IMG/VR virus record: IMGVR_UViG_2695420514_000005
Source of the DNA: a virus
Lineage: Duplodnaviria; Heunggongvirae; Uroviricota; Caudoviricetes
Reading direction: 5' to 3' (one strand)
DNA length: 5,731 nt
Under the pieces are notes generated by a model that did not search any database, was not told where the DNA came from, and saw only the letters and a list, made by a program, of their open reading frames with translations. The position numbers and the translations under genes are program-made. Positions 399 through 482 of this stretch are shown here, piece after piece; within the stretch, counting starts at the first letter, position 1; every line of letters begins with the position of its first letter.

Positions 399-482
399 TT
401 ATCCCCAGCGGCAAATCGAATACACCACCAGCGCCACCGCCATTGCAATTCCCATCGTTGCGAATGCTTCAGGCCAGGTCAT
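399..482 (-). CDS. 27-aa hydrophobic micro-ORF (MTWPEAFATMGIAMAVALVVYSICRWG), possible small membrane peptide
   Basis: ATG at 480-482 (minus) overlaps the TGA stop of the upstream DUF551 gene (479-481) in an ATGA arrangement. A strong SD (GGAGGTGA) sits 6-7 nt upstream, inside the end of the DUF551 gene. Stop TAA at 399-401. The core FATMGIAMAVALVVYSIC is long enough for one membrane helix. No homology is recognised; the ORF is short, so this call is tentative. Confidence 0.35.
   Translation of the reverse strand: MTWPEAFATMGIAMAVALVVYSICRWG

Follow-up and report, generated by a model that had tools for sequence, protein, structure and literature searches.

A mobile 27-codon reading frame in the early region of lambdoid phages and prophages of Escherichia, a candidate gene for a single-pass membrane peptide

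The small inner-membrane proteins KdpF, AcrZ, MgtS, PmrR and CydX of E. coli modulate larger membrane proteins, and SidA of Caulobacter, with only 29 residues, is an SOS-induced small membrane inhibitor of cell division. Here we describe an element of comparable size in a stretch of 5,731 nucleotides (nt) from a tailed phage (IMG/VR record IMGVR_UViG_2695420514_000005), hereafter the window. It is an open reading frame (ORF) of 27 codons, the micro-ORF, which we hold with high confidence, from the comparison of related sequences, to be a protein-coding gene under purifying selection at the peptide level, and whose predicted product is a peptide that crosses the membrane once. Like the KdpF group, this peptide has fewer than 50 residues, comprises one hydrophobic helix with few flanking residues and escapes annotation, and as in the helices of that class its conserved small residues (G11xxxA15) are suited to helix packing. 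Unlike the KdpF group, it is carried by phages, moves as a cassette and is in every case coupled to the stop codon of the gene before it, and it has no sequence relationship to any of them. The resemblance to SidA is one of analogy only, in the similar size, the single transmembrane helix and an induction linked to DNA damage, here through prophage induction.

The type I toxins (Hok/Gef, TisB, DinQ, ShoB, Ldr and Ibs) are also small hydrophobic membrane peptides, but the micro-ORF differs from them in its exposed consensus Shine-Dalgarno sequence and coupled start, and in a helix that is uncharged in nearly all variants. The Pfam Hok_Gef model was not matched, and no Rfam element, whether an antisense RNA of the Hok/Gef type or a mok-type leader, overlaps positions 399-482. 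The features of a holin were looked for as well, and neither a location in a lysis cassette nor a charged C-terminal domain was found, only the residues RWG following the hydrophobic stretch. The micro-ORF either follows the replication genes and precedes hok, with the RusA and Q genes farther downstream, or, in some phages, lies in the exo-xis region beside xis and int. It thus shares its neighbourhood, and presumably its early pL-driven expression, with the exo-xis/ea proteins of lambdoid phages (Orf60a, Orf61, Orf63, Orf73, Ea8.5 and Ea22; PMC10834534), and often directly follows mosaic Ea22 variants, including the V2 type that bears DUF551. However, those proteins are soluble and annotated, whereas the peptide is predicted to be embedded in the membrane and is unannotated; the exo-xis literature that we searched, PMC10834534 included, says nothing of a membrane peptide in this place.

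The micro-ORF and its signals are arranged in the window as follows.

399-482, minus strand: micro-ORF of 27 codons (ATG at 482-480) plus TAA (401-399), taken from the ORF listing and the sequence and encoding MTWPEAFATMGIAMAVALVVYSICRWG, a predicted single-pass membrane peptide.
487-494, minus strand: Shine-Dalgarno sequence GGAGGTGA, inside the final LEVSQ codons of the upstream gene, with GGAGG 7 nt from the ATG.
479-482, minus strand: stop/start overlap ATGA, in which the TGA of the DUF551 ORF (481-479) is shared with the ATG of the micro-ORF.

Within the window alone such an ORF is not beyond chance, given that the first 1.5 kb holds 21 ORFs of at least 20 residues, and its significance therefore rests on the comparison with related sequences. 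Related copies were retrieved with a degenerate DNA pattern in which only M1, W3, P4, E/D5, A6, G11, A15, Y21, R25 and W26 were fixed, and which hit 7 stretches among the species-representative genomes as well as over 120 viral contigs. All of the 140 copies retrieved (35 peptide variants, 58 distinct nucleotide sequences) have 27 codons followed by a stop and begin with ATGA, although the pattern demanded neither. Codon 2 encodes Thr, Ser, Asn or Ile but always begins with A, which points to a constraint from the overlapping upstream TGA and not from the amino acid. In a wider set of 216 copies, for which the pattern did require [AG]TGA, every copy overlaps an upstream stop (195 by ATGA and 21 by TGATGA). 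A motif of the GGAGG/GGAGGA type is found 6-9 nt upstream of the start in most copies, with weaker variants in a few.

Over the 27 codons of the 140-copy set, the summed column entropy was 9.5, 6.8 and 20.4 at codon positions 1, 2 and 3, respectively, and the pairwise ratio of nonsynonymous to synonymous differences (pN/pS) was 0.33, or 0.49 in the codons left free by the pattern. When each change was counted once along a minimum spanning tree built from 77 unique ORFs, the total was 258 (53, 47 and 157 by codon position), and these counts give a ratio of nonsynonymous to synonymous substitution (dN/dS) of about 0.34 (p = 2e-17 against neutrality). The ORF also coincides with an island of conservation: across 113 unique sequence contexts the mean pairwise identity is 0.7-0.93 inside it, about 0.6 over the 20 nt with the Shine-Dalgarno sequence and 0.35-0.45 farther out on both sides. 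At locus L008 the reading frame is intact in a copy with 74% DNA identity.

A survey blind to the peptide, anchored on a 22-mer in the hok promoter, covered 119 loci whose upstream sequence was long enough. The micro-ORF has a homologue in 98 of them, and unrelated sequence lies upstream in the other 21. Ninety-three of the 98 homologous copies are intact, including three with in-frame deletions of 6 nt (two distinct variants), two with GTG starts, in which GTGA stands in place of ATGA, and six with W3R. The five broken copies carry either a 1-nt deletion (L141, L148 and L188) or a stop in place of W3 (L147 and L189), and one other copy is frameshifted near its C-terminus. Sampling of complete E. 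coli genomes by blastn gave 13 copies, of which one has a frameshift, one is truncated by the insertion sequence IS5 (L144) and the rest are open, two of these being altered at otherwise conserved positions (W26C in one, V16E and R25G in the other). The inactivated minority fits with the decay of defective prophages, not with the absence of a gene. The original prediction had singled out this ORF by its ATGA overlap with the DUF551 gene and the Shine-Dalgarno sequence inside that gene, and had proposed conservation of the frame in related prophages as the check. The ORF is present on the minus strand with both signals, which are conserved features, the overlap being found in all retrieved copies (as GTGA in the two just mentioned), and the frame has proved conserved both among the pattern-retrieved copies and in the blind survey.

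The predicted product would span the membrane once, as its composition had suggested in the original prediction. In the window copy, the 19 residues from residue 6 onwards average 2.1 on the Kyte-Doolittle scale, with a Hessa sum of about 0 kcal/mol, and in four divergent variants the corresponding values are 2.1-2.3 and 0 to -1.25 kcal/mol, with a single hydrophobic stretch of some 19 or more residues in all four. Among 46 distinct peptides P4, A6, G11, A15 and Y21 are invariant, W3, R25 and W26 are kept in 44-45, and F7, A13, A17, S22, I23 and C24 are kept in most, while residues 6-24 include no charged residue in nearly all of them. Two small-xxx-small motifs of the type used in helix packing are present, G11xxxA15 and A13xxxA17. 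A lipoprotein was also considered and rejected, as YSIC is no lipobox and the cysteine lies three residues before the end.

The contexts in which the micro-ORF is found largely show it to be a self-contained cassette of about 100 bp, made up of its own Shine-Dalgarno sequence and 27 codons, that recombines as a unit. It occurs 3′ of varied early accessory genes (Ea22-like, DUF551, EaA-like and zinc-ribbon), and the final 35 residues of the upstream proteins fall into 18 clusters. About half of these clusters end in a DUF551 domain and the others are of some six unrelated types, among them a zinc-ribbon/coiled-coil protein (the 933W L0139 type) and an EaA-type protein. The commonest upstream tail, ...ERNGLISVEDILR, accounts for 74 instances and has no Pfam domain, while several DUF551 subtypes share the ending ...HWMPLPEPPQEVNQ. 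DUF551 was the only Pfam match among the upstream C-terminal domains, and a search of NCBIfam with the upstream proteins gave no match. An N-terminal ...LASLEAEP motif common to mosaic Ea22 variants is present in over half of the upstream proteins; such variants occur in Shiga toxin (Stx) phages, and one of them has a DUF551 C-terminal domain (PMC10834534).

About 16 nt with the Shine-Dalgarno sequence move with the micro-ORF onto genes without DUF551, giving tails such as ...ELSQEVNQ and ...NIEQEVNR. Unrelated upstream proteins thus end alike (...QEVNQ, ...QEVNR or ...QEVK; for example at the zinc-ribbon-type loci L030, L038 and L043, and at L014) because their last five codons encode the Shine-Dalgarno sequence of the micro-ORF, and whichever gene precedes the cassette apparently receives its C-terminal tail from it.

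On the other side, we found 16 mutually unrelated downstream contexts. The hok/sok leader follows directly in 57% of the pattern-retrieved copies; elsewhere the micro-ORF is followed by a DUF4222 gene and then xis and int, by a 34-residue hydrophobic ORF and then hok, by intrinsic terminators, some of them common to convergent ParDE-type genes, or by one of several other arrangements. Some blastn matches stop precisely at the two ends of the micro-ORF (H79-H81, query 15-98), as does that at L005. Conversely, DUF551 genes occur without it, as in gene 6c of phage 24B and yfdS of the K-12 prophage CPS-53, where other coupled genes follow. No micro-ORF is present in CPS-53, the only K-12 prophage covered, or in the leftmost 9 kb of phage 24B, and ribosome-profiling data there cannot test its translation.

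In one rare arrangement the peptide forms the C-terminal tail of an Ea22-like protein by in-frame fusion (L242, 3001-3432), as seen in four independent sequencing runs (L242-L245). The junction, ...LPPLESNK-MSWPDAFAIAGVAMSIALIVFAICRWG, involves a divergent copy of the peptide and sits before DUF4222, xis and int; the fusion arises from a 1-nt difference in the spacer between the Shine-Dalgarno sequence and the ATG, and the fusion proteins form singleton clusters in the protein collection. A programmed frameshift joining DUF551 to the peptide was considered separately and rejected: the micro-ORF is in the -1 frame, ...CCGCCGCTGGAGGTGAGTCAATGA contains no slippery heptamer, and each copy starts with an ATG or GTG of its own.

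The 34-residue hydrophobic ORF (MSDDISLAMEGALAVVAVVGVYCLVVFLMDRLGN; hypothetical protein WP_001278450.1; L008, 1066-1170, minus strand) is a side observation of this survey. It stands between the micro-ORF and hok in 27 instances, including L143 and the L053 type, and at L060 its place is taken by a 68-residue protein with a similar C-terminal helix.

In regard to its distribution, a strict pattern found the micro-ORF among species-representative genomes only in E. coli, Shigella flexneri and one Escherichia sp., apart from two tiny contigs assigned to Xanthomonas pisi (L016, 431 bp) and Acinetobacter idrijaensis (L019, 369 bp), for which contamination is likely. When 5,426 complete E. coli genomes were searched by blastn, 1,664 gave a match to the region, 1,374 of these with a coverage of at least 80%, counts that are upper bounds because the query takes in the end of DUF551; the micro-ORF would accordingly be present in at most about one complete E. 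coli genome in four. The number of matching places per genome has a median of 2 and a maximum of 9. A tblastn search found it in 94 phage records, including 933W, VT2-Sakai, Min27, BP-4795 and Stx1- and Stx2-converting phages; lambda was not among the phage records listed. It is also carried by 180 plasmids (154 from Escherichia, 25 from Salmonella and one from Klebsiella), mostly non-mobilizable and of phage-plasmid size.

That normal annotation would miss the ORF, as had been predicted, was borne out: the NCBI Prokaryotic Genome Annotation Pipeline (PGAP) left it uncalled in all RefSeq loci examined, and it is unannotated in 933W as well, where it lies on the complement at 58,909-58,826 of AF125520. 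At 84 nt the micro-ORF is shorter than the minimum that common gene callers usually set for a gene, which accounts for its absence from annotation and family databases. The peptide gave no significant family match in Pfam, PHROGs, NCBIfam, PADLOC or the sequences of the PDB. A Pfam scan of two peptide variants returned only a sub-threshold PTR2 hit. The best PHROGs match, for one variant, was phrog_38566 (E = 0.0065), the rest having E values of 0.11 or more and a third variant giving none. The KdpF model TIGR02115 scored 14.4 bits against a cut-off of 26.85, and the model for an OadG-related small transporter subunit (NF040909) scored 14.8 bits against a cut-off of 25, with one variant only; both therefore stay below threshold. 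Proteins containing the peptide were sought with read-through queries of 42 and 32 residues, and the protein collections yielded only short entries named "hypothetical protein" or "bacteriophage protein" from E. coli, E. albertii, Shigella and Salmonella, the rare fusions and misnamed fragments. From these searches we conclude that the micro-ORF family is new and previously undescribed, although its kind, that of small phage-borne membrane peptides, is a familiar one.

The misnamed fragments are pieces of the micro-ORF at contig edges that NCBI lists as 'DUF551 domain-containing protein, partial' without any DUF551 sequence (P0013, P0045-P0047, P0053, P0056 and P0063), and because of them clusters at 90% identity mix the peptide with true DUF551 proteins. 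The clustering had suggested that the peptide is the tail of DUF551 proteins of 121-185 residues; this was rejected as an artefact of naming and clustering, since no segment is shared.

The window itself comes from a lambdoid E. coli prophage of the Rac/YdaT type and covers its immunity and replication region, with cro, a YdaT-like gene, replication genes, DUF1627, DUF977, DUF551 and the micro-ORF on one strand. It is 99.8% identical over positions 200-1300 to L001 (E. coli PS1Thumoskin9), which is annotated with a cI-like repressor on one strand and on the other a Cro/CI-family regulator, YdaT, replication genes, DUF1627, DUF977, DUF551 and hokD, followed later by DUF968, RusA and Q; the micro-ORF lies unannotated between DUF551 and hokD. 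The features around the micro-ORF in the window are these.

479-1197, minus strand: Ea22-like/DUF551 accessory gene, frameshifted here; the L001 version is intact, with 239 residues.
358-398, minus strand: inferred hok promoter, with a -10 element TAGAAT at 369-364 and a -35 element TTGCGG or TTTGCG at about 392-386.
198-357, minus strand: hok mRNA leader/sok (Rfam RF01794), separated from the hok coding sequence.
1-197, plus strand: right end of an IS481-family element, with the C-terminus of the transposase at 93-206; annotated matches are 100% identical.

The prophage that holds this copy is in decay. Compared with L001, the DUF551 gene has lost one nucleotide in a run of C at about 1108-1113 (the difference is listed at window position 1114), and is thereby split into an ORF at 1105-1197 (30 residues) and one at 479-1135 (218 residues), the latter with a Pfam DUF551 match (E = 5e-21). 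It is either a pseudogene or the product of a homopolymer sequencing error. The stop of the micro-ORF lies about 42 nt upstream of the start of the hok transcript and abuts the hok promoter, which we placed from the start of the Rfam leader at 357 (cmscan match to RF01794 at 192-357, minus strand, 99.8 bits, E = 1.9e-22) and from the annotation of sokW, mokW and hokW in 933W; a scan for consensus promoters gave no call there. In GenBank, 933W is annotated with the same layout. Alignment with intact loci places the IS481-family insertion just past the hok Shine-Dalgarno sequence, 11 nt upstream of the hok ATG, with the junction at 197/198; the element here takes the place of the hok coding sequence that normally follows. 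This interruption resembles the chromosomal hok loci of E. coli K-12 that are inactivated by insertion sequences.

The mRNA of the window copy could also form a long hairpin (385-520, minus strand; -53.3 kcal/mol, z = -2.96) in which the part of DUF551 that codes for PLPEPP is base-paired with the part of the micro-ORF that codes for AVALVV, with the Shine-Dalgarno sequence and the AUG enclosed between them. The idea of a conserved hairpin masking these signals was dropped, as the pairing is missing from other sequence variants.

Taking these data together, we consider it somewhat probable that the micro-ORF is a genuine gene for a single-pass inner-membrane peptide of temperate phages and phage-plasmids of Escherichia and Shigella (and some of Salmonella), expressed early through translational coupling and acting as a helix-packing modulator. 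Presumably without a promoter of its own, it would be translated by termination and reinitiation whenever the early operon is transcribed from pL or pR, at infection or induction; the ea22 genes are reportedly among the earliest transcribed, and the top-transcribed exo-xis genes in Stx phages (PMC10834534). The peptide may insert with its N-terminus out and its C-terminus in, so that E5 would be periplasmic and R25 cytoplasmic, with W3 and W26 at the membrane interfaces. The invariant small residues (G11xxxA15, with A6 and Y21) could then allow the helix to pack with itself or with another membrane protein, and so small a peptide would, in early lytic development, modulate some membrane component of the host or the phage rather than act as a pore-forming toxin or holin. 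This last preference is weakly founded; we hold it because the helix is uncharged, translation is unrestrained by an antisense RNA or a folded leader, the gene lies outside lysis cassettes and many copies are tolerated.

Several points weigh against this reading. Its functional part, namely the target and the role as a non-toxic modulator, is something that we infer. About 5% of the copies are broken. A single conserved face of the helix finds no support, with p = 0.26 for helical periodicity of the conservation. A literature search found the peptide string in no paper, nor does it appear in the enterohaemorrhagic E. coli (EHEC) ribosome-profiling study supplements. In the window copy the frameshift in the upstream gene, if real, may impair the coupled translation of the micro-ORF. 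Finally, an antisense frame with the same wobble positions has the same dN/dS signal; we reject that frame only because it is without a conserved start and stop. The antisense ORF of the window, 73 residues long on the plus strand at 290-511, was dropped for a missing conserved start and for stops in some variants, and is also ruled out by L005, where the conserved block is the 84 bp only.

The alternative that survives best, although we think it unlikely, is the one that the original prediction had named, a small toxin or holin-like peptide that damages membranes and would depolarise or permeabilise the inner membrane once the early operon is derepressed, as do TisB, DinQ, ShoB, Hok or the Kil protein of lambda. 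Its size and hydrophobicity are those of the type I toxins, the hok/sok toxin locus so often lies directly downstream, and toxicity would be tolerable if expression depends on pL or pR and is silent in lysogens. However, type I toxins are typically translated from occluded, antisense-controlled messages, whereas here the Shine-Dalgarno sequence is strong and the start coupled, and neither an overlapping Rfam element nor a match to a Hok/Gef or PADLOC model was found. The absence of charge from residues 6-24 in nearly all of the 46 variants, the location outside lysis cassettes with only three residues after the membrane segment, and the up to nine (median two) matching places per genome also argue against a toxin or holin.

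Slightly less probable still is a two-component module with whichever protein is encoded directly upstream, in which the peptide would be a detachable membrane anchor that takes Ea22-like or DUF551 proteins to the inner membrane, its coupled start ensuring that the two are produced together. The stop/start overlap is universal, the Ea22-type ...LASLEAEP motif occurs in more than half of the upstream proteins, and nature provides an Ea22-like fusion in at least four independent samples (L242-L245). Against it, the upstream C-terminal domains that adjoin the peptide are mutually unrelated (18 tail clusters). The module with the DUF551 gene that the original prediction had proposed did not withstand the comparison, since around half of the copies have no DUF551 tail and some DUF551 genes lack the cassette altogether. 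Moreover, the zinc-ribbon partner of the 933W L0139 type has neither the Ea22 motif nor DUF551, and the fusion proteins are confined to singleton clusters. The rare fusion nevertheless leaves room for a looser functional tie to the upstream accessory proteins, and is the only hint of this kind.

We would give only a small chance to a more specific role, in which the peptide is a partner or antagonist of Hok, or an early-lytic host-takeover peptide directed at an inner-membrane protein, and its gene a promoter-less mini-cassette that captures the translation of the preceding gene and adds to it the QEVNQ tail. The link to Hok is one of adjacency only, the peptide gene lying within about 300 nt upstream in 109 of the 119 hok loci of this promoter type.

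Least probable of all, and in our view quite doubtful, is that the peptide is irrelevant and the 84 bp are a recombination linker, an RNA element or a regulatory leader ORF for the downstream hok promoter or terminator, for while the conserved block is sharply bordered and flanked by mosaic joints, a hok promoter or intrinsic terminator often follows directly and the window copy can form its stable hairpin around the Shine-Dalgarno sequence and AUG, the excess of third-position changes with the low dN/dS shows selection on the peptide, codon 2 switches amino acid yet keeps the A of the overlap, length is preserved with in-frame deletions tolerated, the hairpin is not conserved in other variants, and the 16 downstream contexts are unrelated and without any Rfam overlap.

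The reading of the micro-ORF as a gene for a membrane peptide thus implies that a conserved gene has been overlooked in much-studied phages of pathogenic E. coli, such as 933W, VT2-Sakai and Min27, and makes it a well-supported addition to the short list of candidate small membrane proteins of phages. It also offers a clean case of a mobile coding cassette of about 100 bp whose borders match the mosaic joints. Since the micro-ORF appears to depend on upstream translation, deletions of or insertions in genes of the Ea22 type, or in the other accessory genes that it follows, could have had polar effects on it that went unnoticed.

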